Below are positions 9,112-40,489 of a stretch of DNA of 64,000 nt, piece by piece. The DNA comes from Squalus acanthias. Its lineage: Eukaryota. Within the stretch, counting starts at the first letter, position 1. Each line of letters starts with the position of its first letter. The DNA is taken from contig CM059437.1 in the NCBI GenBank assembly GCA_030390025.1, forward strand, positions 20,336,001-20,400,000, written 5' to 3'. Both the position numbers and the translations under genes were made by a program. The notes under the pieces were generated by a model that was given only the letters and a program-made list of their open reading frames with translations, was not told the DNA's origin and did no database searches.

Positions 9112-10054
9112 TTAATATGCCTATAGAAGACCTTTGGATTCCCTTTTATGTTGGCCACCAATCTATTCTCGTACTGTCTCTTTGCTCCTCTTATTTCCTT
9201 TTTCACTTCTCCTCTGTACATTGTATATTCAGCTTGATTTTCCCTTGTATTATCAAGCTGACATCTGACATCAAGCTTCTTCATCCTACTCTCTAACTCT
9301 CATCATCCAGGGAGCTCTGGTTTTGGTTGTACTGCTTTACCCCTTGTGGGAATGTACCTAGACTGTATCCGAACCATCTCCTCTTTAAAGGCCGGCCATT
9401 GCTCCATTACATTTCTGCCTGCCAGTCTTTAACTCCAGCTTACCTGGGCCAGATCCCTCCTCAATTCGCTGAAATTAGCCCTCCTGCAGTTAAGTATTTT
9501 TATTCTGGATTGCTCCTTGTCCTTCTCCATAACTAATCTAAACCTTATGATACTGTGATCACTATTCCTGAGATGCTCCCCCACTGTGACATTCTCCACT
9601 TGATCCACTTCATTTCCCAGGACTAGATCCAGCAATGCCTCCTTCCTTGTTGGGCAGGAAACATACTGATCAAGAAAATTCTCCTGAACACACTTCAGAA
9701 ATTCCTCCCCTTCTCTGCCCTTAACACAATCACTGCCCCATTCAATATTGGGGTAGTTAAAGTCTCCTGTTGTCACTACTCTATAGTTCATGCACCTCTC
9801 AGTAATTTCCTTGCAAATCTGCTCCTCTATCTCCTTCCCACTATTTGGTGGCCTATAAAATACATCAAGTAGCATAATAGCTCCTCTATTGTTTCTTAAC
9901 TCCAACCAAATCGACCCATCAAGGACATTCTTTCTTTCTAGCCCTGTAATATTTTCCTTAATCAAAACTGCTACCCCTCCTCCTTTTCCTTCCCTATCTT
10001 TCCTGACTACCTTGTACCGAGGAATATTAAGCATCCAGTCCTCCCCTTCCTCTC

Positions 10055-11715: not shown

Positions 11716-14605
11716 TCACTTGATGCCTTTACTAGTCAGAAATCTATCAACTTCTGTTTTGAATATACCCAATGACTGAGTCTCCACAGCCCTCTGGGGT
11801 AGAGTATTCCAAAGATTCACCACCCTCTGTGTGAAGAAATTTCTTCTCATCTCAGTCCTGAATGGCCTACCCTTTATCCTGAGGCTGTGGCTCCTGATTC
11901 TAGACTCCCCAGTCAAGGGAAACATTCTCCCAGCATCCACCCTATCGAGCCCTGTAATAATTTTGTATGCTTCAATGAGATCCCCTCTCATTCTTCTGAA
12001 TTCAAGAGAATACAGGCCTAGTTTACTCAATGTCTTCTCATATGACAGTCCTGCCATCCCAGGAATCAATCTCATGAACCTTCGTTGCACTCCCTCTATG
12101 GCAAGTATATCCTTCCTTAGGTTAGGAGACCAAAATTGTACACAGTACTCCAGGTGTGGTCTCACCAAGGCCATATATAATTGGAGTAAGACTTCTTTAC
12201 TCCTGTACTCAAATCCTCTTGTAATGTAGGTCAGCATACCATTTGCCTTCCTAATGGCTTGCTGCACCTGCACATTCACTTTCAGTGACTCATGTACAAG
12301 GACACTCAGGTCCCTTTTGAGCATCTGCATTCCCCAATCTTTCACCATTTAGGAAATACTCTGCCTTTCTGTTTTTTCTACCAAAGTGGATAACTTCACA
12401 TTTATCCACATTATATTCCATCTGCCATGTTCTCGCCCACTCACTGAGCCTGTCGAGATCCCCTTGAAGCCTCTTCACATCCTCTTCACAACTGACACTG
12501 CCACCTAGCTTTGTATCATCAGCAAATTTGGAAATGTTACATTTAGTCCCCTCATCCAAATCATTGATATAGATTGTGAATAGCTGGGGCCCAAGCACCG
12601 ATCCTTGCGGTACCCCACTAGTCACAGCCTGCCATCCTGAAAAAGACCCATTTAGCCCTACTCTTTGTTTTCTGTCTGTTAACCAATTCTCAATTCATGC
12701 TAGTATATTACTCCCAATTCCATGTGCCCTAATTTTGTTCACCAACCTCTTGTGTGGGACCTTATTAAAGGCCTTCTGAAAATCCAGATACACCACATCT
12801 ACCGGTTCCCCTTTGTCTACTCCACTAGGTACATCCTCAAAGAACTCCAATAGGTTTGTCAAACAGGATTTCCCTTTCATAAATCCATGTTGACTCTGCC
12901 CAATCTTATTATTAGTTTCTAAGTGCCCAGTTACTGCATCCTTTATAATAGATTCCAGCATTTTCCCAACTACTGATGTGAGGCTAACAGGTCTGTAGTT
13001 CCCCGTTTTCTCTCACCCTTCTTTCTTAAATAGCAGGGTTACATTTACTATCCTCCAATCTGCAGGAACCGTTCCAGAATCTATAGAATTTTGGAAGATG
13101 ACAACCAATGCGTCCACTATCCCAATGGCCACCTCTTTCAAAACCCGAGGATGTAGGTCATCCGGTCCTTGGGATTTATCGACTTTTAGTCCCATTAATT
13201 TTGCTAGTACTGTTTTTTTACTAGTAATAATTTCTTTAAGTTCCTCATTCTTGCCTCACCCTTGGTTTTCTCGTATTTCTGGGAGGTTTTTTGTGTCTTC
13301 CTCCGTGAAGACAGAAACAAAGTATTTATTTAATTTCTCGACCATTTCCTCATTCCCCATTATAAATTCTCCCGTCTCTGACTGCAAAGGACCTACATTT
13401 ACCTTCGCCAGTCTTTTCTTTTTCACATACCTATAGAAGCTTTTACAATCCATTTTTATATTTTTTGCTAGTTTGTGCTCATATTCCATTTTCCCTTTCT
13501 TTATCAATTTCTTGGTCCCCCTTTGCTGATGTCTAAAAAGATCCCAATCCTCAGGCTGACTGCTTTTTCTGGCAACTTTATAAGCTTCCTCCTTTGACTT
13601 AATACTAGCTTTAATTTCTTTTGTTAGCCATGGTTGAATCACTTTTCCTTTTGGTTTTTTAAGCCCTAGAGGAATATATGTTTGTTGCAAATTATGCATT
13701 ATTTCCTTGAATGTTAGCCATTGTATGTCCACCTTCATACCTTTTAGCGTAGTCTCCCAATCTACCATGGCCAACTTGGCCCTCAGACCCTTGTAGTTTC
13801 CTCTGTTTAGATTGAAGACCTTAGTTTCAGGTTGGACTACATCACTCTCAAACTTAATGTAAAATTCAATCATATTATGGTCACTTGTCCCTAAAGGCCC
13901 CTTTACCACAAGATTATTGATTAGCCCTTTCTCATTACACAGTACCAGATCCAGAATATCCTGTTCCCTGGTTGGTTCCTCCACATACTGATCCAGGAAA
14001 CCATCTCGCATGCTTTTCAAGAATTCGTCCTCCACACCATTAGTGGTAATTTGATTTGCCCAGTCAATATGTAGATTAAAGTCCCCCATGATTACCGTAT
14101 TGCCCTTGTTACATGCGCTTCTAATTTCTTGATTGATACTGTGCCCTACATTACCACTACTGTTTGGTGGTCTATACACAACTCCCACCAATGTTTTCCA
14201 CCCTTTGCTGTTTCTTAGCTCCACCCAAACTGATTCCAGTTCTACATCACGATCTGCCGAGCCAAGATCTTTTATCTCTACCATACCGATCTCATCCCTT
14301 ATTAACAGCGCTATGTCACCTCCTTTTCCTTTTTGCCTGTCCTTCCTAAATGTTGAGTACCCTGGAACATTCAGTTCCCAGCTTTGGTTACCCTGCAACC
14401 ATGTCTCTGTAATGGCAATTACATCATACCCATTTACTTCTATTTGTGCCATTAATTCATCCACCTTGTTGCAAATGCTACGTGCATTTAGATAAAGTGC
14501 CTTTAACTTTGCTTGTTTAATATTTTTCTGCACTTTGACCCTCTTTACTGTTGGCCTTTGTTTCTGCTCCCTACTAGTTTTGCTGACTACTTTTCTAACT
14601 TGCAC
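11716..14605 (-). pseudogene. CR1 ORF2 (APE endonuclease + reverse transcriptase), inactivated
   Basis: [30 protein letters not shown] and KFADD motifs. ORF-track pieces 13256-14605, 13013-13195, 12695-12961 and 12290-12625 share one frame separated by single stops; one frameshift near 12320. Confidence 0.92.
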
Positions 14606-14689
14606 TTCCAGCTTTGTTTCTCTCAGTTCTGGGCCAACACTTCGGTTCCCAGCCTCCTGACAAACTAGTTTAAATCCTTCCCAACAGCA

Positions 14690-15613
14690 CTAGCAAACCC
14701 CCCCTGTGAGGATATTGGTCCCGGTTCTGCCGAGGTGTAACCCGTCCAGCTTGTACAGGTCCCACCTACCCCAGAATCGATCCCAATGCCTCAGGAATTT
14801 AAATCCCTCCCTCCTACACCATCTCTCCAGCCACGCATTCAACTGGTCTATTCTCCTATTTCTGTTCTCGCTAGCACGTGGCACTGGGAGTAATCCTGAG
14901 ATTACTACCTTTGAGGTCCTGCTTTTTAATTTATTTCTTAGCTCCCTATATTCTGCTTGCAGAGCCTCGTCCCTCTTTCTACCTATATCGTTGGTACTGA
15001 CATGGACCACAACCTCTGGCTGTTCACCCTCCCCCTTCAGAATGTCCTGCAGCCGCTCAGTGACATCCTTGACCCTGGCACCAGGGAGGCAACATACCAT
15101 CCTGGAGTCACGTCTGCGGCCACAGAAACGTCTATCTGTCCCCTTACGATAGAATCCCCTATCACTATTGCTCTCCCACTCTTTTTCTCCCCTCCTGTGC
15201 AGCTGAGCCACTCGTAGTGCCACGGACTTGGCTCTTGCTGCATTCCCCTGAGAAACCATCTCCCCCAGCATATCCAAAACAGAATATCTGTTGGAGAGGG
15301 AGATGGACCCAGGGGACTCCTGCACTACCTTCCTAGTTCTTTTACTCTGTCTGGTGGTCACCCATTCCCTTTCTGCCGGTGCACTCTTTACCCGCAGTGT
15401 GACCACCTCGTTAAACGTGCTATCCACGTAGATCTCATCCTCGTGGATGCTCCACAGTGACTCCAGCCGCAGCTCCAGATCCAAAATGCGGATTTTGAGT
15501 AGCTGCAGCTGGAGACACTTCCTGCACATGTGTTTGCCCTGGACACCGAAAGTGTCCCTGACTTCCCACATAGCACAGGAGGAGCACTCCACGCTGCTGA
15601 GCTGCCCTGTCAT
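14690..15613 (-). pseudogene. CR1 ORF1 (CxxC...CxxC zinc finger, coiled coil, SGNH/GDSL esterase domain)
   Basis: CSSC...CRKC, VVVHVSTNDI and DGLHL motifs. The IVIGDSIVRG motif lies in another frame (ORF 15037-15243), implying compensating frameshifts. Confidence 0.88.
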
Positions 15614-16759
15614 GTTCTACCCTTAATTTACTCCCTTTACTTCCTCTAAATTAAAGAATATTAAATACACTAGGGACCTTACTTCACTTTAAACACTACT
15701 TACTCTAAACTAGAGACCTTACTTTTACTTTTAACGACTGGACTGTAGAAATACTCACCAGGTCCTACTTACCAATCAGCTCCTTCCCTGGTTGTGATGT
15801 CACTTTAGCGGTTTTGCAGTTGTTGTTGTTGTTGTTTGACTGCTCCCGCTCTCGGACTCTTTCCTGGGTGTAAAGTAAGAACTAATTGCTACAGGGTGAA
15901 AAGTTAGGGAAAGCAAAGGCGAATCAAGGGAGCTCCTCCTTCCACTCCTCACCTAACTCCCTCCCTCACTCACTCACCCAACTCCCAGCACTCTAATCAA
16001 ACTGCACTGTGAAGCCTGTTTTTATAGGCCCTTAAACAAGGGAGCTGGCTGAGCCCTGCTACAGGAAAACCAGTTTAATCTAGTTTCCCTAATTAACTGC
16101 CTTCAGCTGCTCTGAATTATCCTCTGCCTTCTCCAGTGCTGCCGACTCCTCTCAGGTCCGCTGTCCTCGGCCTCCCGCTCTCTTTATCCACTGCCTTCTC
16201 CGGGGCTGCCGACTCCTTTAGGGTCCAATGAAGTACTTTTAAAGTGTAGTCATTGTTGTAACATAGGAAACTAAGGAAAATGCGATAACATTTCTAAACA
16301 GTGGGTAAATGTCACATGATCAAATGTCACATGATCAAAATTTTACCTGAACAAGCCACAGCCAACCAGAGTTGGCAAACCTAAATGTATGTCTGGGGTT
16401 ATTTGTAATATTGACCCTGTTTATGGGCTTGATCGATTACTGTGGCTGTTATGGAACTCCAGAATTAGCCAATGTTCAGATATTGCACGTTATTTAGTGC
16501 CCAAAATACCCATACAGGGTCTATTAATGACTATTCACACCGCCCTCCAGGCAGCAATTTAGGTGGCATTAATGCACCCAGGCTCTTGGTTATCTATCTT
16601 TCGCACATTTTGCTGGCATTTGCATGTGATTAGGAATAAATTAAGTGCCTGCATTATCCTTGAAACTGCTCCGAGTCATGCATACATGTGCTTAAGACTT
16701 TGTTTGGACTGGAAAGCTGGATGGGCCTCTGCTTCCATTTCCCATGAGATTGAAACAGT

Positions 16760-17548: not shown

Positions 17549-18414
17549 GGCCGCAATTTTTTCAATGGAGGCGGTTGGGTGCGGGTCAGGTGGTTTCCGG
17601 CTTCCAGTCCCGCCCCCAACTGCATCCGGCCCACGGACGTGATTTTACGTTGATTGACCTTGTTAAGCCCGCCCTGCGAGCTCGCCGGCCAATTAAGAGG
17701 AAGCCGGTCAGATGACGTAATTTGATGATGCGTCATCTGCCAGTTTTCTTAAAGGGACCACGCACAATTTTTTTTGACAGCTGATTTCTCAGTGTTTGAC
17801 AGCATTGAGGTGCTGAAAACACTGACAATCACTGTACAAAGGTGACCTCTTGTACCCAGGCTCTCCAATGACTCCCTCCATAGGCTGGAATAGATGGTAG
17901 CTGCAGGTGAGGTGACAAAAGCGATCTATCACTGGTGAGAGAGGTTCTCCCAATGAGGTGGCACTGGACATGGAGTTCAAAACTTGTAACCTAAAGAAAT
18001 GTGTAAATGCATTAAAAATGCATTGCCCAACATTTTCTCACCTCTGAGACTCACCAGCGCACCATTGGATCCTTCACACCACTTCTGCAGCTGTCATCAA
18101 TCCAGAAACATTACAGCAGACTCACAACACGCCACACTTACCTGGCATGGTGTCGGGAAACCTGAGGCAGAAGCGGCAAAATTCAAAAATAGCCTGTGAA
18201 CTACTAGCAACTACCTGTTAATAGGCAGGTAATTGTCTTTAATCCTCTTCCCGCCACTAGGTGTAGGGTCCATGCGCAAATCGGGGACCCGACACTTGGG
18301 AAAATTGTTTGGAGGCGGGTTGATGGTGGGTTCATAACCCGCCGTCAATCAAAATGATTTTAACCGTTGACCTGCCTCCAAACCCGCCCTCTGAGCGCCG
18401 GCAAAATCCAGCCC
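17549..18414. mobile_element. Harbinger-like MITE, same family as 28903-30338 in inverted orientation
   Basis: Ends GGCCGCAATTTT / AAAATCCAGCCC; collinear with the reverse complement of 28903-29363 plus 29945-30338. Confidence 0.8.
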
Positions 18415-18730
18415 ATAGTGTTCAGTCTGGGACGTATGTATCAGTGCGTCATAATTAGGCACCTGACAGTAACGAATTACTTCTCAAAGGAGTTTTTGTT
18501 TTACTAAATTTGACATTTCAGTCCCTGCCTCGCCCCTAACCCATCATGCGACAGCTGTGTTGAGTTTTGTCTGTTTATAGTAGGTACATCTATGTCCAGT
18601 CACAGCTGATAATCTAACTCCAGTAAGGATGCCCACAACTACAGTGTACAGAGAGTCATCAACTGTGTAGAAGGCCTTGGTTTATTCATTTACCATTCCA
18701 GAAGAACATGGGGATGGAGGGGGAATGAAA

Positions 18731-19158
18731 TAAAGAAAGAAAAACTTCCATTTATAAAGCGCCTTTCACGTCTCAAAGCGCTTTACAGCCAATTAAGTAC
18801 TTTTGGAATGTAGTCACTGTTCTAACGTGAGAAATGCAGTAGCCAATTTGCGCACAGCAAGCTCCCACAAACAGCAATGTGATAATGACCAGATAATCTG
18901 TTTTTGCTATGTTGATTGAGGGATAAATATTGGCCAGGACACCAGGGATAACTCCCCTGCTCCTCTTCGAAATAGTGCCATGGGATCTTTTACGTCCATC
19001 TGAGAGAACAGACGGCACCTCCGACAGTGCAGCACTCCCTCAGCACTGCACTGGAGTGTCAGCCTAGATGTATGTGCTCAAGTCCCTGGAGTGGGACTTG
19101 AACCCACAACCTTCTGACTCAGAGGCGAGTGTACTACCCACTGAGCCACAGCTGACAC
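18731..19158 (-). mobile_element. tRNA-derived Deu-domain SINE (SacSINE1/AmnSINE1-like)
   Basis: Pol III A and B boxes on the minus strand, Deu core AAAGATCCCATGGCAC...GTGTCCTGGCCAA, and L2-like tail. Confidence 0.85.
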
Positions 19159-21243
19159 TGAAGGTTTGGTGGGCACACATCAAGGAAATCAACTGTGGAA
19201 AAATAACAGTCGGAATGAGAAAAAAAAAATCACAAGAACTGGAAATTTGAAATAAAATGGAATATTTTGGAAATACAGAGCAAGTCGATCAGCATCTGAA
19301 GGAACCAAATCGGTTAAAATGGTTCAGGCATTACTCTTCATCAGAATAGAGTTCACATTAAGGAGCGCATCCAAATCTTTTCTTTCTGTTTCACATTTGC
19401 GCGTCCTTTGCATGAGCATTTTATGTGAGTGTATGCTTTCCTGCTTATGGCATTCTCTCACACCATCCCTGTTTCTCCTGATTTGTTCTCTTTAATTTAT
19501 TCTTTCCTTCCTCCTCTCATTCTCTGTCTCTGTTTGTCTTGTCCCCTCTTCCCCTTTCACTCTTTCTTTCTCTCTCATGCCTTCCCCATCTTCAATTCCC
19601 ATTTTCATTCCTGTCCGCTCCCTCTTTCTCTTACTTCTCTCTCGATTTGAAAATTTGCATTATGATTGGTGTTTTTAAAAAATAGTAAATTCACAAAATA
19701 TCCGCACCTGCTCCATTATAACTTCATAGATGGTTATTTCCAACTCGAACTTCTATCGTTTACTTCATGTGGGGTGTGGTATAAATGAATATCAGTCTTA
19801 AGGTAGTTTATTAGGAAAATCAGTAAAGATCAAGATCGAACTGCCAAGCAAACCATTTTTCCAATTGTTAAGTAATGAGTTATACTACAGTAAGATTACT
19901 CTCCATTCTTCAAATTTAAACTGAGGTTGAAATACAGCCTGAATATATTGGTGAAATTGAAATCTGATTTGCTTTCGAGTACTTCTGCACAATCACTGTC
20001 CAATACACACACTGTGCTCTGCATCTAACATCAAATCAGCAGATTACAAAAGACTATGGTTTGCAAAAGGAAATCATTTTTCATATTTGATAATGTAACA
20101 GATATCAGAATTCATGCAGAAATGAGATGAGGTCTAAATGAGCTCTCACTTTTGTGCCTGAAATGCTCTGTTTAACCAGCCACCCACCAGCCTGCTCCTA
20201 TGTAATGCTTTAATCTTTTTTAACCATCACTTCACATTGGGACTGAGTGCATGGACGGGGCAGCATTCAAAAACCACACTCCAGCAGCAGAAGAGCCGGA
20301 AGCAGCTTGCAGGAGGTGGCCACTCCTGGTATAGATCATAGCAATTACAGCTGATCGATATGATAAACAACAGCTTTGCATTTTCCTAGGGTGCAGATGT
20401 TGCAGTCAAGCTGAGGAAAGGAAATGTGCCCCATTATTAAACAAGTGATTGGAATGATTTGGACCTGTGATTCCCCGCATAGCGAGTTCCTAATCTTAAC
20501 TGAGAGAAGCAAAACTACAGAAGAAGGGAGAGAAGATCAGTAACAGGGAACTGCTCTTGCACACTGCTTGGGGCAGAATTTCCTGATCCTATACTAGGTA
20601 TATTGGATTGCCTGGGTACAGCACCGAGAGGAAAATTAGGCAGAGTGGATTGCATGCTTGTAAAGGATCTCACCCAATTTTCTGTCTCTTCATTTAAATG
20701 GATAGAAAATTAGGTGGGCTGCCTTATTGGCATGCAACTTTTTCACCCAATGGGTGGGTTAATCCATCCTGAAGGTGTGTTTCTAATCTTCTGGATAGTG
20801 ATGCTGGCCAAGGTGTAAAAGGAAATAGTGCAGACACTTTGCTCTGTATATATAGAAACAGTAGAAAGAAATGATAGCATTGCTGATCACATAGAATTAT
20901 AGAAATGTCTGCATCTGCCATGGCAAATTTTAAAATGTGTTCTAGAGAATTGAAGACAAAATATTGCTTTGAAATAGTTTATGCTCCAACATGGTTATTC
21001 TCTGCTTCAGTGTGCACTGTAGCCAAAAGGAAGTCATAAAACCCAAATAAGCTATTCCAGAAACTGAGACTATCCAATCTCACCCCGAGGTGATCACTCC
21101 CTTTTAATCACTAGATTGGGAAGCAATTCTGGCTAAAACAGTCATTATCTCTTCCCACCTAAACCCTGCTTACTCCTCCAAGCTGTATTGGACTGTGTTC
21201 GCCATAGACCGAGCTCTGAAGTAAAACTGGTGATGCAAGCTGT

Positions 21244-21977: not shown

Positions 21978-22537
21978 ATTGTTTTGTTTATTTGACAAAC
22001 GCAGGGATAGGTAAAGACTCATAGTGCAGAACACCACCTGGGCTGAAAAGAGTAGGAGAAGAGGCAAGAATAACTCATGATTACGTGGCACTAAGCTTGA
22101 GTTTTAAGCCTGTAGATTGAAGGAGAAATGGAAGACCTGCAAGATGTAAGAGGTATTGGGGAAGAAAGATTAGGGGTGCGTCACTCCAAAGTGGCAAACA
22201 GGCAGATTGCTCCGAAGGATACAGGAGTATAAACTCAGCCCATGTAAGCTCGAATGAGATCCTGCAGAGGCAGATGAAAGAATTCTGCAAGAGAGAGAAG
22301 ATCCAATCAGAAGTTCAGGATTAGCATTCCATTTTTCAAACCTCCCTAATCCAAAATTGGAATCCTATTGCTCCAATGTTCTGTATATCATAGCTTTAGT
22401 TCATTTTTTCCCTTTAAGATTTTGTGCTCATCAAGGAAAAGGATATTGGTGCTTGGACTAGAGAACTCTTCCAATATCAGCCACCCAGGGTCAGGTACAA
22501 ACACTCCAAAGTTATGTACAGCACAACCATCTGTAGA

Positions 22538-24561
22538 ATATCCCTCACTCTACCATACCGTCAAGCCAGGGAACGAACCCTGGTTCAATAAGGAGAGCAG
22601 AAGAGCATGCCAGGAGCAGCACCAGGCGTACCTAAAAATGAGGTGCCAACCTGGGGAAGCTGCAACACAGGACTACATGCATCCTAAACAATGGGAGCAG
22701 CATGCTATAGACAGAACAAAGCGATCCCGCAATCAGCGGATCAGATCAAAGCACTGCAATCCTGCCATATCCAGTCGTGAATGGTGGTGGACAATTAAAC
22801 AACTAACGGGAGGAGGAGGCTCCGTGAATATCCCCATCCTCAATGATGGTGGAGCCCAGCATGTGAGTGCAAAAGACAAGGCTGAAGCGTTTGCAAGCAT
22901 CTTCAGCCAGAAGTGCCGAGTGGATGATCCATCTCGGCCTCCTCCTGAGGTCCCCACCATCACAGAAGCCAGTCTTCAGCCAATTCGATTCACTCCATGC
23001 GATATCAAGAAATGGCTGAGCGCACTGGATACAGCAAAGGCTGCGGACCCCAACAACATCCCGGCTATCGTGCTGAAGATTTGTGCTCCAGAACTAGCTG
23101 CACCTCTAGCCAAGCTGTTCCAGTACAGCTACAACACTGGCATCTACCTGACAATGTAGAAAACTGCCCAGGTATGTCCTGTCCACAAAAAGCAGGACAA
23201 ATCCAATCCATCCAATTACCGCCCCATCATGGAAGGTGTCATCGACAGTACTATCAAGTGGCACTTACTAATAACCTGCTCACCGATGCTCAGTTTGGGT
23301 TCCACCAGGACCACTCAGCTCCAGACCTCATTACAGCCTTGGTCGAAACATGGACAAAAGAGCTGAATTCCAGAGGTGGGGTGAGAGTGACTGCCCTTGA
23401 CATCAAGGCAGCATTTGACCGAATGTGGCATCAAGGAGCCCTAGTAAAACTGAAGTCAATAGGAATCGGGGAAAACTCTCCACTGGCTGGAGTCATACCT
23501 AACACAAAGGAAGATGGTTGTGGTTGTTGGAGGTCAATCATCACAGCCCCAGGACATCGCTGCAAGAGTTCCTCAGGGCAGAGTCCTAGGTCCAACCATC
23601 TTCAGCTGCTTTATCAATGACCATCCCTCCATCATAAGGTCAGAAGTAGGGATGTTCACTGATGACTGCACAGTGTTCAGTGCCATTCACAACTCCTCAG
23701 ATGATGAAGCAGCCCATGCCCACATGCAGCGAGACCTGGATCACATTCAGGCTTAGGCTGATAAGTGGCAAGTAACATTCGCACCCCACAAGTGCAAGGC
23801 AATGACTATCTCCAACAAGAGAGAGTCTAACCACCGCCCCTTGACATTCAACGGTATTACCATCGCCAAATCCCCCACCATCAACATCCTGGGGGTCACC
23901 ATTGACCAGAAACTTAACTGGACCAGCCACATAAATACTGTGGTAACAAGAACAGGTCAGAGGCTGGGTATTCTGCGGCGAGTGTCTCATCTCCTGACTC
24001 CCCAAAGCCTTTCCACCATCTACAAGGCACAAATCAGGAGTGTGATGGAATACTCTCCACTTGCCTGGATGAGTGCAGCTCCAACAACACTCAAGAAGCT
24101 CGACACCATCCAGGACAAAGCATCCCGCTTGATTGGCACCCCATCCACCACCTTAAACATTCACTCCCTCCACCACCGGCGCACCGTGGCTGCAGTGTGT
24201 ACCATCTACAAGATGCACCGCAGCTACTCGCCAAGACTTCTTCGGCAGCACCTCCCAAACCCGTGACCTCTACTGCCTAGAAGGACAAGGGCAGCAGGCG
24301 CATGGGAACACCACCACCTCCAAGTTCCCCTCCCAGTCACACACCATCCTGACTTGGAAGTATATCGCCGCTCCCTCATCGTCGCTGGGTCAAAATCCTG
24401 GAACTCCCTCCCTAACAGCACTGTGGGAGTACCTTCACCACACGGACTGCAGCGATTCAAGAAGGCAGCCCACCACCACCTTCTCAAGGGCAATTAGGGA
24501 TGGGCAATAAATGCTGGCCTTGCCAGCGACGCCCACATTCCATGAACGAATAAAAAAAAAA
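22538..24561 (+). mobile_element. 5'-truncated CR1/L2-group non-LTR retrotransposon, a different family from the HER1-like CR1s
   Basis: RT fragments PELAAPLAKLF, ALDIKAAFD, VPQGRVLGP, MFTDD and IYKAQIRSVMEY with stops and frameshifts; ends AATAAAAAAAAAA. Confidence 0.9.
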
Positions 24562-28902: not shown

Positions 28903-30338
28903 GGCCAGAATTTTGCCGGCGCTCAGGGGGTGGGTTTGGAGGCGGGACATCTGGCAAAATCGCAAAGATTGACCGGGTCGGAAACCTGCTGTCAACCCGC
29001 CTCGAATCAATCTTCCCAAGTGTCGGGTCCCTGATTTGCGCATGGACCCGACACCTAGCGGTGGGAAGAGGATTATAGCTACTTAACTGGTTGTTAACAG
29101 GCAGTTAACAAGGCTCTTTCCAATGTTGACACTTCTACTGTGGGCTTCCCGACATTCAGACACCACGCCAGGTAAGTGTGGCGTGTTGTGAGTCTGCTGT
29201 AATGTTTAAGCATTGATGACAGCTGCAGTAGTGGTGTGAAGGATCCAATGGTGCACTGGTGAGTTTCAGAGGGAAGAAAATGTTGGGAAATTCATTTTTA
29301 ATGCATTTAGACTTTTATGTAGGTAACAAGTTTTGATTTGTATGTATAGTCCCACCTCATTGGGTAGATTGGGACTCTACTCATTGGAGTTCAGAAGAAT
29401 GAGAGGCGATCTTATTGAAACATATAAGATTGTGAAGGGGTTGGATCGGGTGGATGCGGGGAGGATGTTCCCGATGACGGGTGAGACGAGAACTAGGGGA
29501 CATAGTCTTAGAATAAGGGGCTGCTCTTTCAAAACTGAGATGAGGAGGAACTACTTCACTCAGAGGGTGGTAGGTCCATGGAATATGCTGCCACAAAAAG
29601 CTGTAGAAGCTACAACATTAATTAAATTTAAAACAGAAATAGACAGTTTCCTAGAAGTAAAGGGCATTAAGGGTTACGGGGAGCGGGCAGGAATTTGGAC
29701 ATGAGTCTAGGTTCGGATCGGTCATGGCCCTGTGGGTAGTGGAGCGGGCCCAGGGACTGTGTAGCCTGATTCTGCTCCTATTTCGTGTGTGCAATTCTGT
29801 TAGATGCAGGAGATGGTTCTGTGATAGATAGTAGATTGGCGGTTAGGATCAGATCAGCCATGATCTTATTGAATGGCGGAGCAGGCTCGAGGGGCCGATT
29901 GGCCTACTCCTGCTCCTATTTCTTATGTTCTTATGTTCTTATGTTCACCAGTGACAGATTGCTTCTGTAACCTCACCTGCAGCTGCCATCTGTTCTAGCC
30001 TAAGGAGGGAGTCACTGGTAAGCCTGGGTGCAAGAGTTCACCTTTGTACAGTGATTGTCAGTGTTTGCAGCACCTCAATGCTGTCAAACACTGAGAAATC
30101 AGCTGTCAAAAAAAAATGTGTGTGGCCCCTTTTAAGAAAACCGGCAGATGTCGCATCATTCAATGACGTCATCTGACACCGGCTTCCTCCTAATTGGCCG
30201 GCAAGCCTGCAGGGCAGGCTTAACAAGGCCAATTGACGCAAAATCACGTCCGTGGGCCAGATGTCGTTGCGGACAGGACTGAAACCCGGAAGCCACCTGA
30301 CCCGCTCCCAAGCCGCATCAATCGATAAAATCGCGGCC
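28903..30338. mobile_element. Harbinger-like MITE containing a CR1 insertion
   Basis: Ends GGCCAGAATTTT / AAAATCGCGGCC; flanks ATA/ATG; homologous to 17549-18414. Confidence 0.8.
29364..29944 (+). mobile_element. CR1 3' fragment with duplicated 3'UTR
   Basis: LGLYSLEFRRMRGDLIETYKI...KGIKGYGE; (CTTATGTT)x3 tail; absent from the sister MITE at 17549. Confidence 0.9.
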
Positions 30339-32608
30339 ATGGACTCTAGTAATTTACCGTCAACAGAAGTTAGGCTAACCGGTCTATAATACCCTGGTTT
30401 CCCTCGCTTACCTTTCTTAAATAGCAGATGACGTGCAATTTTCCAATCTAAAGGAATGGTTCCTGAATCGAGAGAACTTTGGAAGATCAGTGTTTGGGCA
30501 TCTGCAATGTTCTCATCTACTTCCTTTAAAACCCTGGATGAAAACCATCTGGTCCTGGGGATTTGTCACTCTTTAGTGCCATTATTTTCTTCATTACTGT
30601 TATTTTGCTTGCATTAATTTTGGTGAGTCCCCATCCCTGATTCAATACTAGTTTCCTTGGCATGTCGGGGATGCCATCCTCTTCCTCTACTGTAAATACT
30701 GACGCAAAGTAATTATTTAACATGTCCGTCATTTCCTTATTTTCAATTATAATATCACTATTGTCAGTTTTTATGGGGCCTACATTGCTCTTAGCCACCC
30801 TCTTTTTCCTAACATCATTGTAAAAGTGTTTTGTGTTGATTTTGATATCCTTGCAAGTTTCTTTTCATACTCCCTTTTTGTAGCTCTTACTATCTGTTTT
30901 GTCGCCCTTTGTTGTTCTTTGTATCTCTCCCATTCGCTAGGATCTGTGCTATTTTTTTGCATTCTAGTATGCTTTTTCTTTTAATTTATGTTGTCTCATA
31001 CCTCTTTAGTCGTCCATGACTGTTTTTTGTGGCAAGTAAAGCTCTTTGCTCTGGGGTATAAACTGGTTCTGTGTCATGTTAAATTCTTTTTTGAACACCT
31101 ACCACTTCTGTCATTTTACCCAATAACAGATTTGCCCAGTTTACTGTGTCTGATCCTGTTGAAGTTGGCCTTACCTAAATCTATATTAATTATTTCTGAT
31201 TGGAAGCTGTCTTAACCAATTCGGACCTGAAACTAAGCCGATATTGGAATTTTATTTCTGGCATGCAACTGGCTTTTGTGAAGGACTATGGGACTGATAA
31301 TGAAGTCCCCACACAGCAGATATTCGGACACTCCATGCGCCGGCAGAGGAATGAGTTGATCTCGCTTCATAAAACTTAGGTCAACTCATTATTCTAATTT
31401 GGCGCACTCCATTGATAGCGCATGATGTGCGCAAAGCGTCAGTGGGGAGGGAGCAGAACTTAAGGCGCCAACAGCTAATCCAGGAATACTGGCTGCCTGT
31501 TGAGTGCTGGCATGATTTCCTAGTTGAGGGGGTGGCGGGGGGGGAAGACAGGGCATGGGACTAATTGGGATATCTCTTTCAATGTTTATTTCAAATACTT
31601 TATGTGTGGCTGTGAGTCTCCCTGGTTTAATTTTTTTTTTTACAGGGTCTGATGAGCCCTTGCACATGGTTTGTGGCCAGGCTCCAAACATGCTTCATGT
31701 TGGCTGGCTGCACTGGGGCATGGTAAACCGCCCTGGAGATGTTTCAAGCCTCTGCAACCAGTCATAGGGGTGCAAGTGCTACCCATTGCATTATCAGCTT
31801 GTATGTGTCAGCAAGCGATCGCATAGCGCCAAATGACACACAGCCCAGGGGAGAATTTCTGTACCATTAACATGTAATGCATCCAGACAGAATTGTATGT
31901 TCACTTAACCTACAGCTCTCAAAACAAAGGAAATCTTATCAGAAATAGCAGTGCTGACTTCCATTCTGAATAACCAGATCCCCATGCCTAGTTAAAATTT
32001 AGATTTAAAACAACCTTTAAAATATAAATAATTAATATGACGCAGGATGAAGCCCACATGCATTGTAGTTGCATCAGGAAGAAATGCCATTAATTAATAT
32101 GGCTAACAAATTGTGTCACACTACTAACACTGTATGATTGAGTTTGTAGTAAAGGATAATTGCTTTAGTGGCATAGTATGATGGACTGGTTGATACAGTT
32201 AGATAAGAATACTTTCCTTTTGCTTCTGGGACTGCAGAACAAACAGATAGGGTAAAAACATGAGCACTGGCTCTGGCACTGCCATTAACAAAATATCTTG
32301 CAGGAAGCGTACACATTTTTGAGAGTGTGGGTGGTAAGAAAACCATGAAAGAATGCTTCTGCCCACACAATTATTTAAAAAATCAGAACTATTTTTGGTG
32401 CACATTTTATTGAGCTATATACTGCATGTAGCCATCATTGTCCTTGAGAGTCTTTTAAATTGGTCAAGAAATGTGAAGACATCCAGTAATGGACAGGTTG
32501 TCTTCCTGTGTTGTAATGGGATAGTTCAACTTGAAAGGATCATGAGCAGAGATTTCCAATATTAATGATTCTGTCTGTGAAAATTTGTAAAACATTATTA
32601 AAAATTAG

Positions 32609-33070
32609 GTGTCAGCCTTGGCTCAGTTGGGAGCACACTCAGCTCTGAGTCAGAAGGTCGTGGGTTCAAGTCTCACTCCAGAGACTTGAGCACAAAAATC
32701 GAGGCCGACACTTCAGTACAGTACTGAGAAAGCGCTGCACTGTTGGAGGTGCCGTCTTTCATATGAGGCGTTAAACCGGGGCCCCGTCTACCCTCTCAAG
32801 TGGATGTAAAAGATCCCATGACACTATATTGGAGATGAGCGGGGAGTTCTCCTCAGTGTCCTGGCCAATATTTATCTCTCAACCAGCATCACTAAAACAG
32901 ATGGTCTGGTCATTATCTCATTGCTGTTTGTGGAACCTTGCTGTGTGCAAATTGGCTGCTGCATTTCATACATTACAACAGTGACTGCACTTCAAAAGTA
33001 CTTAATTTGCTGTAAAGCTGTTTGGGACTCCCTGAGGCCATGAAAGGTGTTATATAAATGGAAGACCTAT
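32609..33070 (+). mobile_element. Full-length tRNA-derived Deu-domain SINE (SacSINE1-like)
   Basis: A box TGGCTCAGTTGG at 32619-32630, B box GGTTCAAGTCT at 32663-32673, Deu core and L2-like 3' tail. Confidence 0.88.
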
Positions 33071-34566
33071 GTTTTCCTTTCTTAAGTTTTATTTTTAACT
33101 CTCTGAATTTTAATATAAAGATGACCAAATCTTCAGATCCATGTCATGGACTGTGTGCAGGGTTGTCAGGGTAGGTTTTAAACTGAGGTAAGCTATTTTG
33201 GGTTTAAGCGCAACTATCTGAACGTTGTCTGTACCACATCCTGTTGGGTTTTGTTGTTCCCTGTGTGGTACCCACACTCAGCGGGACTAGTGTTTCAATG
33301 TCTTTCCATTGGTTTTTGACATTGAGGTAGAACTGGTTTCTGTGCTGAAGTTGTCACATCAATAGTAGATTTTCTTTTAAATTGCATTGTTAAATCAGTT
33401 AAAGTCTTATTCCTGGTTGCCTAAAAGAAAAAGGTTGACCCAAATCAGTCAACGTCCAAAAGAAATCACAGCTCACATAATTCAAGCAATTGGTCTGATT
33501 AGTCGCCTAAGCAAAATAATGATATTTTGAGGAATAACAATGATAGCATTCAGAGATATGAGCAAGATTACTACAAGGCAAATTGAGACAAAAGATGCGA
33601 TTGTGTGCCTGTAGCTACTGATTGAGAAGACAATAGCACTTGATGGGAAAATCTTTACTGCGTTCATCAATTACTCTGAACCGTTTAAATCTATTTATAA
33701 TTTTTTAAAGTGCTGGTTCAGGTGGACTTCGCAACACATGGTAGCTCTATAGCAGACACTTAATATTCACCAGGAATTTGAGTTAGTCTGGGGATGTGTC
33801 AGAGTGGTTGAGGATTTTCTAAAAGAGTTTGATAAGCTTGTAAGCTCTTCAGTTACATAGCAAAGCTGAGATGAGAGGACTCGCTAGTGTTGGAGTAGTA
33901 GTGGGAGGAATACAAATTAACAGCTGTCAGTGGATAGATAATTGTCTGCTACACAGGAATGTAGAAAGTATGTACAGAGGCTTCAGGCATAAGTTAATGA
34001 GTGAAAAAAATTGTTGTCAATGGACTTGGTGTTTGAAGTGTGGACTTGTAGATATCTATTAAGAGTGTTAAAGACTGAGTTTAAAAACAAATGTCTAGAA
34101 GAACTAGCTGTAGAAAGGGGATTGATGAAGAGTGGTAATGGCCAAGTAAGGATATTTTGCTCGTGTAAAAACAATGTACTGATGAATTTCCAAATATGTT
34201 GCTAGAATAATTCAGTGTAAAAGAGGTCTCCATGGAATGGTATCAACAATTAGGCAGGTGTATGCTAGAGACTGCAAATGAGCTCAACTGACTTTTGGTG
34301 GAGGAAGATATGAGACATGATGTAGACTTCAATCTTATCGGGAGGGAAGAACGTTGATGATAACCTGTCTGTATGCTAATTCCCATATACACAGCTCTGG
34401 GAAATGATAGAATTTTTATTGTTGTGTACAAGATAAGACCGCTCCTCTCGCTTTTCTTCTCATTTATTCAACAACAACCAGCAGAGATCTCTACAATGTG
34501 CAAATCACCCTGAAAATGGGCTTCTCTTTAGAGCCTAGATATAACTGTTGCAGGAACACTTAGTAT

Positions 34567-35078
34567 TGTTGTGAGATTTCTCTCTGCCCCAAACCAGACG
34601 GAGACGAGCGTGTACTGGTTCCAAGCGATCTTTATTCAAGCACGTGCAGGGAGAGGCCCTCTCAGTCTGAGCTGAGACGGGAGTCTAATTTTTACATTCG
34701 AGCAGTTGGCTTATATACAATCTTACATCTTGTTTCCTTCACATCTTCGGGACTTGGCCAATTAATTGTCCAAGTCACGTACACTTAATCACATCTCCAC
34801 AAAACACATCTTGTTTATCTCATTTGCCCTGTTTCCACATCTGCCATTGTTCTACTCTTTAGCTCTTATCCAATTTCGTACACTTAACCACATCTTCGCA
34901 AATCACATTGGCGGCCCATTGTTCAATGAATGGCCTCTTCACCTTCTTTCGCTCTGCCAATCATCATGTAATATGCTTTTTCCAACAGTCAGCAACTGTC
35001 TTTGTTCTGCCAGACTTATCCTTTATTACATCAGCCAGGTAGTCAGTTAAGCTGCTAATCTAACTTTTAACCCCTTCA
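34567..35078 (-). repeat. 3' LTR
   Basis: Direct repeat of 39324-39835 with ~22 substitutions and no indels seen. Minus-strand TATA near 34711-34717 and AATAAA at 34631-34636. Confidence 0.97.
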
Positions 35079-36882
35079 GTTCCCCCTTTTGGTCCTTGGT
35101 GATAGCCAAGATGGCCAACTAACTTCACCTGCCCGTGCTCCTCGCCCCATCACTGCTGGCCAGGCAGGTGGTTGGATTTGCATGGGTGTGGCTACTGAAA
35201 CTACCTCTAACATTCCCTGCTTCTCTCCCAATCTATATTGTGTTTTAACAACTGTTTTAGCAATGGTTCGGTTACGGCGTCGTTTACATTGAGTACAATA
35301 CTCAAACATAAGGATGATGACAATTAGCAACTGCACCACCACCAATACATCAGATGCAATTCTGATCCAGGGGTGTATGTTCACCCTAATACCCCAGTAC
35401 CAAAGTGTCTGCCACCATGAGGCATCTTCCAGCTTGGCCTCCACATCCTTCCCCAGTTGTTTGACCTCTTGCTCAATTCGGTGATACTGCTTAATTATCG
35501 CCCCGGCCTCTTTCCTCAGTTCCAGTAGGTGTTCTGGTAGTTTCGGGATGCCCTTCCCCTCAGGGAGCACATATTCGAGCATGCTGTCCTTTATGTCCTC
35601 AGTTGGACTCACCCGTTCCTCGCGGGGCGACCGTAGGTAGGTTATGGTTGCATGTCCGATCGTTGTTGGGGCCCGGGGGCGGAAGCAGAAACTTGAGCTG
35701 GACAGTGGGCACTGGATGTTACCATACTGGTATTGAGATTCACTGGTGGTCACACAGTATTCTCCTTTTCCCCGGTGTGCTGCTCGCGTTGGCTCATGGC
35801 GGGTGCTGAAAATTCCAAGGGTACAGTTTAGGGTGGTGTTGAAGCCGCACATGGCTCCTGGCCCCGTCCCCACGGGATGTGGGCAGACTACGTTACTCCC
35901 CCTTTCTCTGCATCCCTCTAGCGAGATCCCTGTCAAGAAGGAACCTTTCTGGGTTGCATAACTGGGTGTGTGGTGGTACCTGAGCCAATTGCCATCTCTC
36001 ATGATCCCGACATTCTCTACCTCGTAGAGGGGCTTGGATTCCCATTCCTGCAGACTGGGTACATCTAATATCATTCCTATCAGCCTGAGGTGAGTGGTAA
36101 CACAATGTTTAGTTGTCGGGTAGACCCTTATAAGTCCTCGTACGGTGCAAGAAGAGCAATTGCCGCTCTCTGGCGCCCAGTCTTGAAGTGCACTATCCGT
36201 AAACCAATCCGGCACATCTCCATTGTGGAGCTGTGCTAGATTATGTCGCACCTCCCCCACTAGCATGCACCGTAGACCACACACATTCGTTCCCTAAAGG
36301 CCTGATTGGTTACGTTATGCAGGGTGGCGATGATGCGGTTAACTGTATGGGCATGGTTTTCCAAAACTTGCACGGACTCTAATAGGGTTTTGGCCAAATC
36401 TTCTCCGGTCTGTCCCTGTTGTCCCTCCAACTTATTTGCCTTTAACATGAGGTCCCTTAGTTTGGATGTTAGATGATTCACCTTGCTATCAATTTCCACT
36501 ATATCCAGGGAATTAACTGTGGATGTCCCTGCACTGTAAGCAGTGGCTATGTCATCTACCAGGTTCCTCCCTGTACGCATGTCAATGTATCATCACTCTG
36601 CTTCCCGAAGCATACCGTGCTCATGTTTGTCCATTTAACAACCATCCCCATGTTACCCCTATCCCCTGTAACACCTGGCTTGTTGTCAGATATGCTTACG
36701 CCCGTTAACCCGGAGCTACAATTTAAATACACTGTTTTATCAACCATGACAGTTAACGCCCCACGTTTGTGATCGCATCTGACGTCGCTCGAGTTCTTGT
36801 AATACAGGCCTCATTACTCCCTTCGGTCAACTGATGTGGTTCATTCTGTGGTCGCCGTGGCCAGGCATATCAGTAAGGTCAT
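35076..36882 (-). pseudogene. env: env-like class I fusion glycoprotein (~600 aa reconstructed), disrupted
   Basis: Signal-peptide-like MTLLICLATATT at 36882; RTGR/NLVDDIATAYSAG putative cleavage site; heptad region; Cys-rich domain; second heptad; Trp-rich segment; TM VLVVVQLLIVIILMF; basic tail. Split over ORFs 36556-36747, 36260-36580 and 35076-36284. Confidence 0.85.
35079..35090 (-). promoter_or_regulatory. Polypurine tract
   Basis: AAAAGGGGGAAC immediately before the TG of the 3' LTR. Confidence 0.9.
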
Positions 36883-36895
36883 CCATATCTGAGTC

Positions 36896-36915
36896 CTGTA
36901 GAGGGAGATAAACAG
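36896..36915 (-). promoter_or_regulatory. env splice acceptor
   Basis: Minus strand CTGTTTATCTCCCTCTACAG|G between the integrase stop (36937) and the env ATG (36882). Confidence 0.75.
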
Positions 36916-36936
36916 TGGACGCCGGTCGTCACCGGT

Positions 36937-38223
36937 TTAGTCCCAATTATTTACTGTGCTTTCGGATTTCTTAAGTTGCGTCCAGTGTTTCCACCGACCT
37001 TTTCCTTTCATATTTACGCATACGCAAGTGTCGCTGGTCATTAGGACCTCATAGGGTCCCTGCCAGTGAGGTGCCCATCCTGGTCTGGTGGGTAAGACTC
37101 TTACCATCACCCTGTCCCCTACTACTGGTAAATTTTGTTTTTCCTCCAATTCCATATCCCTGACTATTTGTTGGTCCCTGACTTCCTGTCTCAGATCATG
37201 CAGTTGTTTGCATAGTTCCTTAATAAACCATCTAATCCTGTCCTGAGCTGGTCCCACGTCTTCACTACCCGTGATCGTGCCCTCGGGCAGTCTCATGGCC
37301 TGCACAGTCATTAGTTCAAACGGGGTTAGTCCGGTGTGCGAGTGGGTGTAGCCCTCAACCTCATTAGGATGCTAGGTAGTAGGTCCGCCCATCCCCTGCT
37401 GGTCTTGGCAATGGCCTTTGCGAGTGACGCCTTTAAGGTTCTATTCATTATCTCTACCATTCCCGAGCTCTGTGGGTGGTATGGTATGTGAAGCCTCTGT
37501 TTTACTCCTAATAGGGCGCATGTCTGCTTGATAACTTTGCCAGTGAAGTGTGTTCCCTGATCTGAGTCTATTTGCAATGGCACCCCCCATCGGGGTAATA
37601 TTTCCTCGGCGAGAAGCTTTGCGACGGTGGTAGCAGCGCAATCCCTTGTGGCGACTGCTTCTACCCATCGTGTGAATTGGTCTATCACCACAAGGCAATA
37701 CGTTTTACCTCAGCTAGGGGGCAGAGGTCCGGTGAAGTCTATCTGGACCTGCTCCCAAGGCCCCTTAGGCCGAGGCTGGTGGGACAATCTGATCTTTATG
37801 GCCTTGCCGGTATTGTACTGGGCACAGGTAATACATCTGTGGTAATATTTTGCTACGTCCCGGCCCATCCCGGCCACCACCAGCACCATTCTATACTCCA
37901 GTGCATAGTATTTCTTCCAGAGTGTTGATTCCCATGATAGATTTTGAGCAGGTTTTGCCGTATGCATTCAGGGGCTACTACTCGTCCCTCCTTTTTCCAA
38001 ATCCCATGCTCATCCTTGTCTGCCCCTTTCCTTTTCCACCCTTCCTTCTCTGTTTCAGTTGTTTCCTCATGTAATTTTTGCACATTTACTTCATCTGGAC
38101 CGATGGCACAAGCTGCCACCGGCTCCAGGGTCTCCATCTCCACAGCCCCCTTTGCTGCCTCGTCTGCCCACTGATTTCCCCTTCGGATATCATCCTGGAC
38201 TTCTGGTGTGCCTTGACCTTTAT
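36937..38223 (-). pseudogene. pol: pol remnant: RNase H C-terminus + integrase
   Basis: IKVKAH and GNQWADEAAK (RNase H); HGNQH...CITC zinc finger; QIDFTGPLP, IDSDQGTHF and PQSSGMVE (DDE core); WQGPYEV. Several frameshifts. Confidence 0.92.
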
Positions 38224-39052
38224 TCTGGGTTAGTCCCACCACCACTGACCAGTTAGATCGGGCTTCCCCTAGACCTCCCTTTACCAATCGCTTAAAACGG
38301 TTTTATCTTCCTAGCTGATTCAATCCCTGTGCATCCTTCCAATTTCCACTAAGGATTAAGTTGGGCATCCCTAGCCAGGTTTGCTGGGGTACCTTGGACT
38401 TTACGAGGACGTGTATATCTTCCGGGTGAAGTGAGTGTACATCTATCATCTCCTCTAACTTATTCCAAAAGTCGGTGTTTGCATGGTTTGTTTTAGGGGT
38501 CGGGAGGTCTCTCGTCATCATCTGTTTCTTGGCTGGGGTGAAGGGACATATCGTACTGTAGTCTGAGCCTGCCCATTTCCCACTTGTCTAATCTCCATCG
38601 TAATAAGGGCCATGGCCATTACGCCCTTCATCTCGGTTTCGGCCAGTGGCGGGGCTGATGGTCCCTCTGCGTCATATTTAGGTGGGGGCTCCCAACCCCC
38701 GTCATCGTCCTGTCTGTCGTAATCTGCGGCTTCCTTCTCTAATTCTCCCCAGTCATTATCGTCTGTCGCTCTAAACCTTGGTCCCGGTGCCCGCACCACA
38801 CTGACCTTAACCTTTTCCTTTTCTATATAACTTTGTACATGTTTACTGAGTCCTAAGTAGCTACTAATAATTATAAGTATTCCCTTCTCTTCCTTACCCT
38901 TACACTGGGCGCCCCACCATTCCCTTTGCCTGTCCGGACTGTCGTTCGGACTGCAGCCTTGTTTTTAATTTTCTCGATTAGTTTCTTATTTTTTCTGTTA
39001 TAAATTTGGTTATGGACCCTTCCGGTCCCCAATCATCCCCTCCTGTGGCCAT
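38217..39052 (-). pseudogene. gag: gag remnant, N-terminal ~280 codons, frameshifted
   Basis: ATG at 39052 (MATGGDDWGPEG) downstream of the PBS; PPPKY and PSAPP motifs; capsid-like FWNKLEEMIDVHSLHPEDIHVLV. Confidence 0.7.
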
Positions 39053-39249
39053 TTTTTTTATTCCTCTGGCCTGCGCAAACGGTAACTCGGACCTTCCTGC
39101 TACAACGCGGTTCTGGTTACCTACGGCGGCTCGCGGTTCTACTGCGAAGAGATCACTCCAGTACCCGCTAGTCTCCTGTTCTGATTCCCTACAGTCTCAC
39201 ATCCAGCCTTCTGGGGTTCTGCACCTAACTATGGGTGGTAATATAAGGT

Positions 39250-39258
39250 ACTCACCCG
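39250..39258 (-). promoter_or_regulatory. Proviral major splice donor
   Basis: CGG|GTGAGT in the leader between the PBS and the gag ATG. Confidence 0.7.
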
Positions 39259-39302
39259 ACTTGTGGTCCCATTATGGTTGGTCATTCGACTGCGTCCTGG
39301 GA

Positions 39303-39320
39303 ATCCTGCCGACTACGCCA
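39303..39320 (-). promoter_or_regulatory. Primer-binding site, tRNA-Ser
   Basis: TGGCGTAGTCGGCAGGAT, 3 nt after the 5' LTR. Complementary to the 3' end of vertebrate tRNA-Ser(AGA/TGA), ...ATCCTGCCGACTACG-CCA. Confidence 0.92.
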
Positions 39321-39323
39321 AGT

Positions 39324-39835
39324 TGTTGTGGGATTTCTCTCTGCCCCAAAGCAGACGGAGACGAGCGTGTACTGGTTCCAAGTGATCTTTATTCAAGCAC
39401 GTGCAGGGAGAGGCCCTCTCAGTCTGAGCTGAGACGGGAGTCTAATTTTTACATTCGAGCAGTTGGCTTATATACAATCTTACATCTTGTTTCCTTCACA
39501 TCTTCGGGACTTGGTCAATTAATTGTCCAAGTCACGTACACTTAATCACATCTCCACAAAATACATCTTGTTTATCTCATTTGCCCTGTTTCCACATCTG
39601 CCATTGTTCTACTCTTTAGCTCTTATCCAAATTCGTACACTTAACCACATCTTCGCAAATCACATTGGGGGCCCATTGTTCAATGCATGGCCTCTTCGCC
39701 TTCTTTCACTCCCCCAATCATCGTGTAATGTGCTCTTTCCAGCTGTCAGCAACTGTCTTTGTTCTGCCAGACTTCTCCTCTATTACATCAGCCAGCTAGT
39801 CAGTTAAGCCGCTAATCTAACTTTAAACCCCTTCA
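39324..39835 (-). repeat. 5' LTR
   Basis: TGAAGGGG...CACAACA on the minus strand; TATATAA at 39468-39474; AATAAA at 39388-39393. Confidence 0.97.
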
Positions 39836-40489
39836 GTATTTTCACATGATATTCCTTCGTTGGCTATTTTAGTAGAAGCACCCTCACCAGCTCAAAAGAA
39901 GGCTTTTGTTGAAATGGTGTTAAACATTCATAAGTTAATATCATAGTCATTTTTATGCTTGTGTCTTGAATAAAGTTTTAGCCATTATAAAAATGGGAGA
40001 CAAATTGTAGATGTATAGCAAGACTACAGTTTAGCAATGCATTGGAAGGTAAAAGAATGTGAGTGGGAGGGTAGTAAAATATGAACTGGCAATTTGCCAC
40101 AATATTGGTGGAGCCGAGTGGTTTGGGAAACCACTGTTCACCTCTGAAAGACCTGAGTCAGGATTCATTTATTTTACATTTGAAGAGAGTAAAGAGCTAC
40201 ATGAGACATTCATTCTGACAATCTAAATCCATAATGGAAAAAGAAATGCCTTTAATTTACACCTTTTATATTTGAAGGAGGCATGATCATGATGTGTACA
40301 ATGGAAAATTTTCTTGAAACACGACAAGTCTTCTGAGGTTATGTTTCCCCCTGAGTGGGTGGTCACACGTAAAATATTAATAGATTTATTATAGTCAGTA
40401 GATCCAATTGACAGAAACAGCAAGCATTAATGTGAGGTAAAACCTACTCTTGGAATGATTTCAATAGTTAAAGCACAATATGGCTTTAT

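Follow-up and report, generated by a model that had tools for sequence, protein, structure and literature searches.

The broken env gene of a likely snakehead retrovirus-like provirus in Squalus acanthias is predicted to encode an F-type (class Ib) fusogen with an extra N-terminal head

An env-like region in the genome of the shark Squalus acanthias raised the question of whether its product has the architecture of the paramyxovirus and pneumovirus fusion (F) protein, and to which retrovirus it belonged. The region was analysed within a window of 64,000 nt (GCA_030390025.1, contig CM059437.1, positions 20,336,001 to 20,400,000). It is read here, with a probability of roughly 0.82, as the broken env of a dead, internally deleted endogenous retrovirus (ERV), likely of a branch like that of snakehead retrovirus (SnRV), whose protein, as predicted from structural models, would be a class Ib fusogen of the paramyxo/pneumovirus F type carrying an additional head at its N-terminus.

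The env feature was found to be part of a defective LTR provirus of 5,269 nt (5.27 kb) at 34,567-39,835 on the minus strand (table 1), which is a dead, internally deleted ERV. The deletion of about 2.8 kb took the rest of gag, the protease, RT, tether and most of RNase H; sister copies keep parts missing here, namely zinc knuckles, a protease-like stretch in frame past a stop, RT, tether and RNase H, and a complete element would be about 8.5 kb long. A donor-like site near 39,255, together with the acceptor ahead of env, suggests a spliced env message. The two LTRs are 4.4% apart, and two full LTRs were present in 9 of 20 fetched copies, with divergences of 0.025-0.049; at the rates of 2.2e-9 and 2.2e-10 per site per year quoted in the available text of PMC4422223, the provirus would be about 10 to 100 million years old, and the true rate for the host lineage may differ.

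Table 1. Features of the provirus, in window positions and in the order of its reading direction.
Feature	Positions	Strand	Basis or remark
4-bp target-site duplication	39836..39839, twin 34,563-34,566	.	sister copies 4-5 bp
5' LTR, 512 nt, TG...CA	39324..39835	-	K2P 0.044 vs 3' LTR
Primer-binding site, complementary to tRNA-Ser(AGA) 3' end	39301..39320	-	4/4 scanned pattern loci tRNA-Ser
ATG and splice-donor-like site of a predicted leader exon, in phase with env	39250..39272	-	donor motif in 16/20 copies
gag 5' part, broken	38224..39052	-	sequence comparison with sister copies
Junction of the ~2.8-kb internal deletion, 8-nt repeat	38217..38224	-	comparison with sister L039
RNase H end and integrase, frameshifted pieces	36937..38217	-	rve 5.9e-16, Integrase_H2C2 9e-4, MLVIN_C 3e-4
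Splice-acceptor-like site ahead of env	36895..36907 (36,896)	-	in 17/20 copies
env signal segment and first part of N-terminal head domain; three in-frame stops	36570..36882	-	head pLDDT <50, no atlas match
Junction of the 466-nt env deletion	36563..36569	-	source of false RTGR; common to L021 and L022
Fusion-peptide-like stretch and heptad repeat A	36260..36565	-	helices 212-325 in sister-copy model
Cys-rich beta domains I/II of F-like C-subunit	35600..36290	-	PF00523 E 0.069; fold comparisons of sister-copy model
Heptad repeat B and Trp-rich membrane-proximal stretch	35426..35540	-	sister-copy model and sequence
Transmembrane helix, then ~75-residue tail up to LTR edge	35304..35360	-	mean hydropathy 2.78
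Polypurine tract	35079..35095	-	sequence
3' LTR, 512 nt, TG...CA	34567..35078	-	LTR comparison

At least 40 copies of the family were counted in the genome. DNA searches gave 77 matches with env (from the best 40 scored of 152 candidates) and, with 5' gag, matches of at least 92% for every one of the best 40 scored of 110 candidates. With RT, 15 matches of at least 93% were obtained among 40 scored, the remainder (68-79%) being other families; most copies of the family therefore lack RT. Copies L021-L040 differ in their internal gag-pol deletions, which are numerous and often lie at short repeats, and target duplications of both 4 and 5 bp occur inside this one family. The nearest named relatives in RT and Env came from Mustelus, Heterodontus, Chiloscyllium, Pristiophorus and Scyliorhinus.

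Much of the anatomy described for env in an earlier note, made from the letters alone, was recovered: a hydrophobic signal segment from the ATG at 36,882, a small-residue stretch after 36,565 followed by a long heptad, a dense cluster of 7 Cys at 35,912-35,687 (14 lie within the 404-aa frame at 36,290-35,079), a second heptad and a transmembrane segment, with neither CX6CC nor an ISD-like motif in a sequence scan of env. The fusion-peptide stretch is only weakly hydrophobic (best 19-residue mean 0.52), which counts against the F-type reading. More than one frame is spanned by the region: it has in-frame stops at 36,843, 36,816 and 36,813, the deletion is out of frame, and the frame shifts again near 36,290-36,260.

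The motif RTGR, which the same note had taken for the cleavage site, proved to be an artefact. It lies at 36,577-36,566 and straddles a junction at which 466 nt are absent at a 7-nt overlap, GAGGAAC; only its last R comes from this repeat, R-T-G being read from upstream codons in another frame. In 11 of 11 measured sister copies, env aligned as two blocks with 442-466 nt between them and the same overlap. The distance from acceptor to cut is 330 nt in the window copy and, in the 17 of 20 fetched copies where it was measurable, 329-330 nt in 2, 761-802 nt in 14 and 1,361 nt in 1 (an insertion). Directly before NLV, 15 of the 20 have an R/K-rich site ending K-R, 2 the RTGR junction and 3 no exact motif, and in the longer copies R-x-K-R, or a decayed form of it, follows after about 265 codons.

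The deleted stretch comprises the rest of the head, a Thr/Pro stalk, the whole F2-like core and the basic cleavage site. In the modelled part of sister copy L006 it corresponds to residues 57-211, and the structural match to F starts there at residue 138; the window copy is therefore without the true F2-like core, and the roughly 100 residues that had been read as an N-terminal F2 belong to the extra head. The order of a short and then a long subunit holds, the N-subunit being about half of the C-subunit, but the F2/F1 argument drawn from it rested on the deletion. An identical out-of-frame junction was found at three loci (the window copy, L021 and L022), which points to an origin of the deletion in an ancestor that was still replicating. 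The deletion mutant, from which the window copy likely descends, was probably made by template switching between short repeats, an established process. Because three separate loci share the deletion, the mutant was likely copied by helper proviruses and so would have spread without an Env of its own.

For the fold, a naturally open 596-aa stretch of L006 was modelled using an alignment of 33 rows, including 32 homologs left from the 40 found in a HMMER library search with env after chimeric and very short ones were omitted; word-index homolog searches with env found nothing. The model had a mean pLDDT of 66 and a pTM of 0.49, with residues 1-124 unmodelled. In Foldseek against the PDB it matched hPIV3 F (1ztm, E 9.8e-11) and RSV F (2e-10), all 39 listed rows being paramyxo- or pneumovirus F, and BFVD matches were to lispivirus G, baculovirus F, parainfluenza F and feline foamy Env (9.5e-6). 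VIA-align gave Z 12.8 against 1ztm (rmsd 8.6, 327 aligned) and Z 11.7 against Nipah F (rmsd 4.6, 287 aligned). Residues 138-526 aligned to F, residue 138 meeting the F2 start, and domains I/II/III are predicted to be present, with core strands coming in part from the N-subunit. Gamma-type and gp41 structures were absent among the listed Foldseek and VIA-align rows, and TLV_coat gave no match for window or sister env while two control Envs matched it. The F-like class I fold proposed earlier is therefore supported by Foldseek, VIA-align and BFVD on a predicted model, and the best fold match was not to TLV_coat or gp41, which had been named beforehand as the outcome that would count against it.

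Sequence matches to F were individually insignificant. The window piece alone gave weak matches to parainfluenza F (E 0.14) and PF00523 (E 0.069), none of 25 env homologs matched PF00523 at E 0.05, one of the 25 matched Baculo_F at 0.001, and in a whole-env atlas search the leads stayed below 0.9 (Baculo_F 0.86, Fusion_gly 0.84). With the paramyxo- and pneumovirus F proteins (PF00523) the shark Env shares the predicted fold and the order of F2 core, furin site, fusion peptide, HRA, DI/DII, HRB and TM; it differs in an identity of 7-14%, in its additional head and stalk, and in having no separate attachment protein gene.

The retroviral lineage was addressed through the RT of sister copy L032, which is 65% identical to a Mustelus ERV protein, 44% to L045, 36-39% to epsilon-, 33-36% to foamy and 34-39% to gammaretroviral RTs. 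L045 carries the RT motifs of the SnRV row in the supplement of PMC7947760 and is 10,688 nt long, the length given for the SnRV GenBank sequence in the accessible part of PMC12193657; among named viruses, SnRV RT is thus nearest to the family. In an RT tree drawn with midpoint rooting, with gypsy-like rows included, rows of fewer than 150 aligned residues dropped and a long-branch warning for P0018, L032 grouped with shark ERV proteins in a starred clade (98/91). It lay outside both the class I+II clade (98/99, also starred) and the foamy clade of 5 rows (100/99), and the shark clade, L045 and a cyprinid clade formed an open polytomy; the RT trees hold no lokiretrovirus row and no named ERV-L row. 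A search of viral contigs with a single RT gave no locus. The provirus is likely to be related to SnRV, and SnRV-like ERVs are known from the elephant shark (PMC4422223, in the text available).

Of the known systems, SnRV and the SnRV-like ERVs of clade Huo (elephant-shark lineage I in the accessible text of PMC4422223) have the nearest named RT; like them, the family has gag and pro-pol read in a single frame that a stop interrupts, a zinc-knuckle Gag and a homologous Env core. SnRV differs in its Env of 1,134 codons, with about 500 residues ahead of the core and a long tail, and in a 3' ORF, whereas the env frame of the shark family reaches the 3' LTR with no such ORF and the element, of about 8.5 kb, is simple and has a tRNA-Ser PBS. 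A related family, L087 (G000:C12), has an RT 70% identical to that of the window family and an open 1,187-codon pol; with this frame and its many equal-scoring RT-DNA matches it is probably young, and the fetched part of its stretch gave no env profile match.

Relatives of Env came from sharks of five genera, a skate and a frog, the closest in sequence being ERV-like Envs. The Env profile A1 was compared by hhalign, in which the displayed reversed decoys reached at most 2.5%. SnRV-type Envs scored 94% (E 1e-7) and 91%, with a homologous core over 277 columns, while hmmsearch alone against SnRV Env was weak (E 0.02-0.05). A foamy profile of 11 scored 78% (single foamy rows 3-90%), and the Env of an exogenous epsilonretrovirus, L077 (probably WDSV), 72% over 204 columns covering the HRA end and the Cys region; L077 differs in its class I RT and 1,229-codon Env. 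A profile of 7 gamma-type Envs scored 4%, and the CX6CC and immunosuppressive domain carried by such Envs in a short TM are missing from the window env. When the shark bridge was left out, the foamy, SnRV and epsilon Envs aligned with one another at 0.1-0.5%. The core model of SnRV Env matched F at E 7e-5 (pLDDT 60), a result that is not independent, having been built with the shark alignment. The best PDB sequence match of profile A1 was foamy Env 8ozh (E 0.0015). Foamy Env, class Ib in the available text of PMC11468914, likewise has F-type domains I-III, but its receptor-binding domain is inserted between the subunits, whereas the extra domain of the shark Env is N-terminal, the coronavirus-like position in the scheme of that paper, and the RT of the shark family lies outside the foamy clade.

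These relatives bear on the possibility of a recombinant, in which a SnRV-like backbone did not inherit its F gene but acquired it recently, either from a negative-strand RNA virus or from a lokiretrovirus. Such a capture would suit the paramyxo-, pneumo- and lispivirus proteins at the top of the structural matches, and env swapping is common in retroviruses according to the accessible part of 10.1101/2021.11.23.469661. It is nevertheless improbable, as the closest sequence relatives are ERV-like Envs spread across sharks, a skate and a frog, SnRV itself carries a homologous Env, a second and distant SnRV-like provirus in the genome (RT 41% to the window family) has it as well, and identity to viral F is only 7-14%.

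A lokiretrovirus, which would be the first in cartilaginous fish, was the first lead and was dropped on RT comparison. An F-like Env with R-x-K-R and a dual RNase H are described as loki features in the available text of PMC7947760, and the shark family has both, the tether and RNase H of sister copies giving a dual RNase H that is common to all retroviruses; Loki-Bsp Env also shares core motifs by eye. The F-like Env and RXKR site are, however, not exclusive to loki, and an F-like env alone does not identify a lokiretrovirus. The RT appears to belong to another lineage, lacking the loki motif RCPFGYxNSPAEF, carrying the SnRV-type motif and agreeing by eye at about 70/133 positions with the SnRV row against 53/133 with Loki-Ame. 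Loki Env lacks a head and amounts to a minimal F, its F2 core starting right after the signal peptide where the shark Env has an addition of about 150 residues, and loki was present in 0 of the 6 chondrichthyan genomes screened, as reported in the accessible portion of PMC7947760. A loki assignment is accordingly quite improbable.

That the resemblance to F is superficial, a matter of long helices and beta domains in an unrelated class I fusogen, is very unlikely. Consistent with it are the low pTM, the high rmsd in VIA-align, the inflation of Z by helical proteins, whole-chain TM-scores of 0.2-0.4, and the PDB sequence matches of a second alignment, A3, which went to coiled coils and to the C-terminal heptad/TM of gp41 (E 0.03-0.7), with foamy only at 0.49. 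The structural matches nevertheless cover the beta domains and the F2 strands (138-526), the Cys positions align with those of parainfluenza F and foamy Env, and the result is the same in three independent libraries.

Under the preferred reading, an F-type Env with an extra head, the parent protein can be described from the longer copies. The signal peptide comes first, perhaps followed by a minimal R-x-x-R leader site; then come a Cys-rich head (about 120-130 residues), the Thr/Pro stalk, the F2-like core (about 80-95), a furin site and the F1-like subunit (about 500 with TM and tail), so that head, stalk and F2-like core make up an N-subunit of about 250 residues; furin site, fusion peptide, HRA, HRB and TM are all present as predicted from sequence and model. 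In the parent virus a spliced env mRNA would have yielded, after signal-peptide entry, a trimer cut by furin at R-x-K-R. Cell binding would fall to the head, carried on the Thr/Pro stalk; once the fusion peptide is freed, it and heptad A would extend, and the folding back of heptad B would merge the membranes. The mechanism of class I fusion is established; splicing, cleavage, trimer and the receptor role of the head are inferred for this virus. On the modular class Ib scheme given in the available text of PMC11468914, the head would by analogy be the likely attachment module. An atlas search with the N-terminal head gave no match, the head is poorly modelled, and distant relatives carry different heads. 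Full-length Env-like proteins with a common core and different heads were P0090, P0097 and P0106, from bamboo shark (739 aa), from a frog (723 aa) and a third of 749 aa, the head of P0106 giving a weak V-set match (E 0.045).

A search for intact copies under purifying selection had also been suggested, and a co-opted host fusogen (syncytin-like) or functional short-F2 variant, for which the deletion shared by three loci and the still open 404-codon frame might speak, is highly unlikely and for the window locus largely refuted, as the deletion is out of frame and preceded by three stops, 20 of 20 fetched copies have at least one stop and frameshifting indels, and pooled pN/pS is 0.82 (range 0.60-1.34; the pairs all share the window copy and are not independent). 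These 20 copies, the best env matches plus four more, are a subset of loci, and stops and indels were scored against the C-terminal frame of the window, so that some indels may be its own. An uninterrupted 784-codon env with a basic cleavage site was seen at L084 (G000:C4:121,881,432-121,886,423; flanks L090, L091), between repeats 90% alike. L084 belongs to a different SnRV-like family (RT 41% to the window family and about 50% to SnRV, pol in pieces), and its open env may reflect either co-option or chance.

The window locus is a fossil and its value is comparative. F-like Envs are published for loki and foamy viruses and gypsy-type elements (PMC7947760 for loki, PMC11468914 for foamy, each in its accessible text); for SnRV-like or epsilon viruses no published statement of one was found, subscription papers and bioRxiv supplements lying beyond the reach of the search. 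The hhalign results support an old, shared F-type Env in deep retroviruses, which fits inheritance and old swaps alike. It is tentatively proposed, at somewhat less than even odds, that the retroviral envelope was ancestrally an F-type (class Ib) fusogen, kept with different attachment modules on one core in loki-, foamy, SnRV-like and exogenous epsilonretroviruses, and that gamma- and beta-type Envs are later replacements; the shark family is the sequence bridge in this proposal because its profile reaches SnRV, foamy and epsilon Envs that fail to align mutually. As to how loki and retroviral Env originated, four scenarios are left standing in the available text of PMC7947760, and epsilonretrovirus Env is called a distinct, recent development in that of PMC9967133. 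Because SnRV-like and epsilon viruses, which sit within the ordinary retrovirus tree, share this predicted F-type core, the scenarios of PMC7947760 become testable, and SnRV is a cultured virus, so its Env structure is solvable.

F-like env families abound in the genome, which is 3.7 Gb in size: the best 61 scored of 11,727 candidates gave 83 matches, at 33-81% identity, to a bamboo-shark protein. On G000:C889, tRNA-Ser-like pattern matches form a large cluster, many of them about 1.7 kb apart. The window itself is filled with LINE and SINE remains, including a CR1/L2-type LINE at 11,716-15,616 (minus strand) with an esterase-like ORF1 (Lipase_GDSL_2, 3e-13) and an endonuclease, and further LINE pieces at 9,429-10,052 and 22,350-23,620. 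Several long inverted-repeat arms (71-206 nt, 77-90% alike) at 17,575-19,167 and 28,903-33,028 are perhaps two inverted copies of one mobile element.
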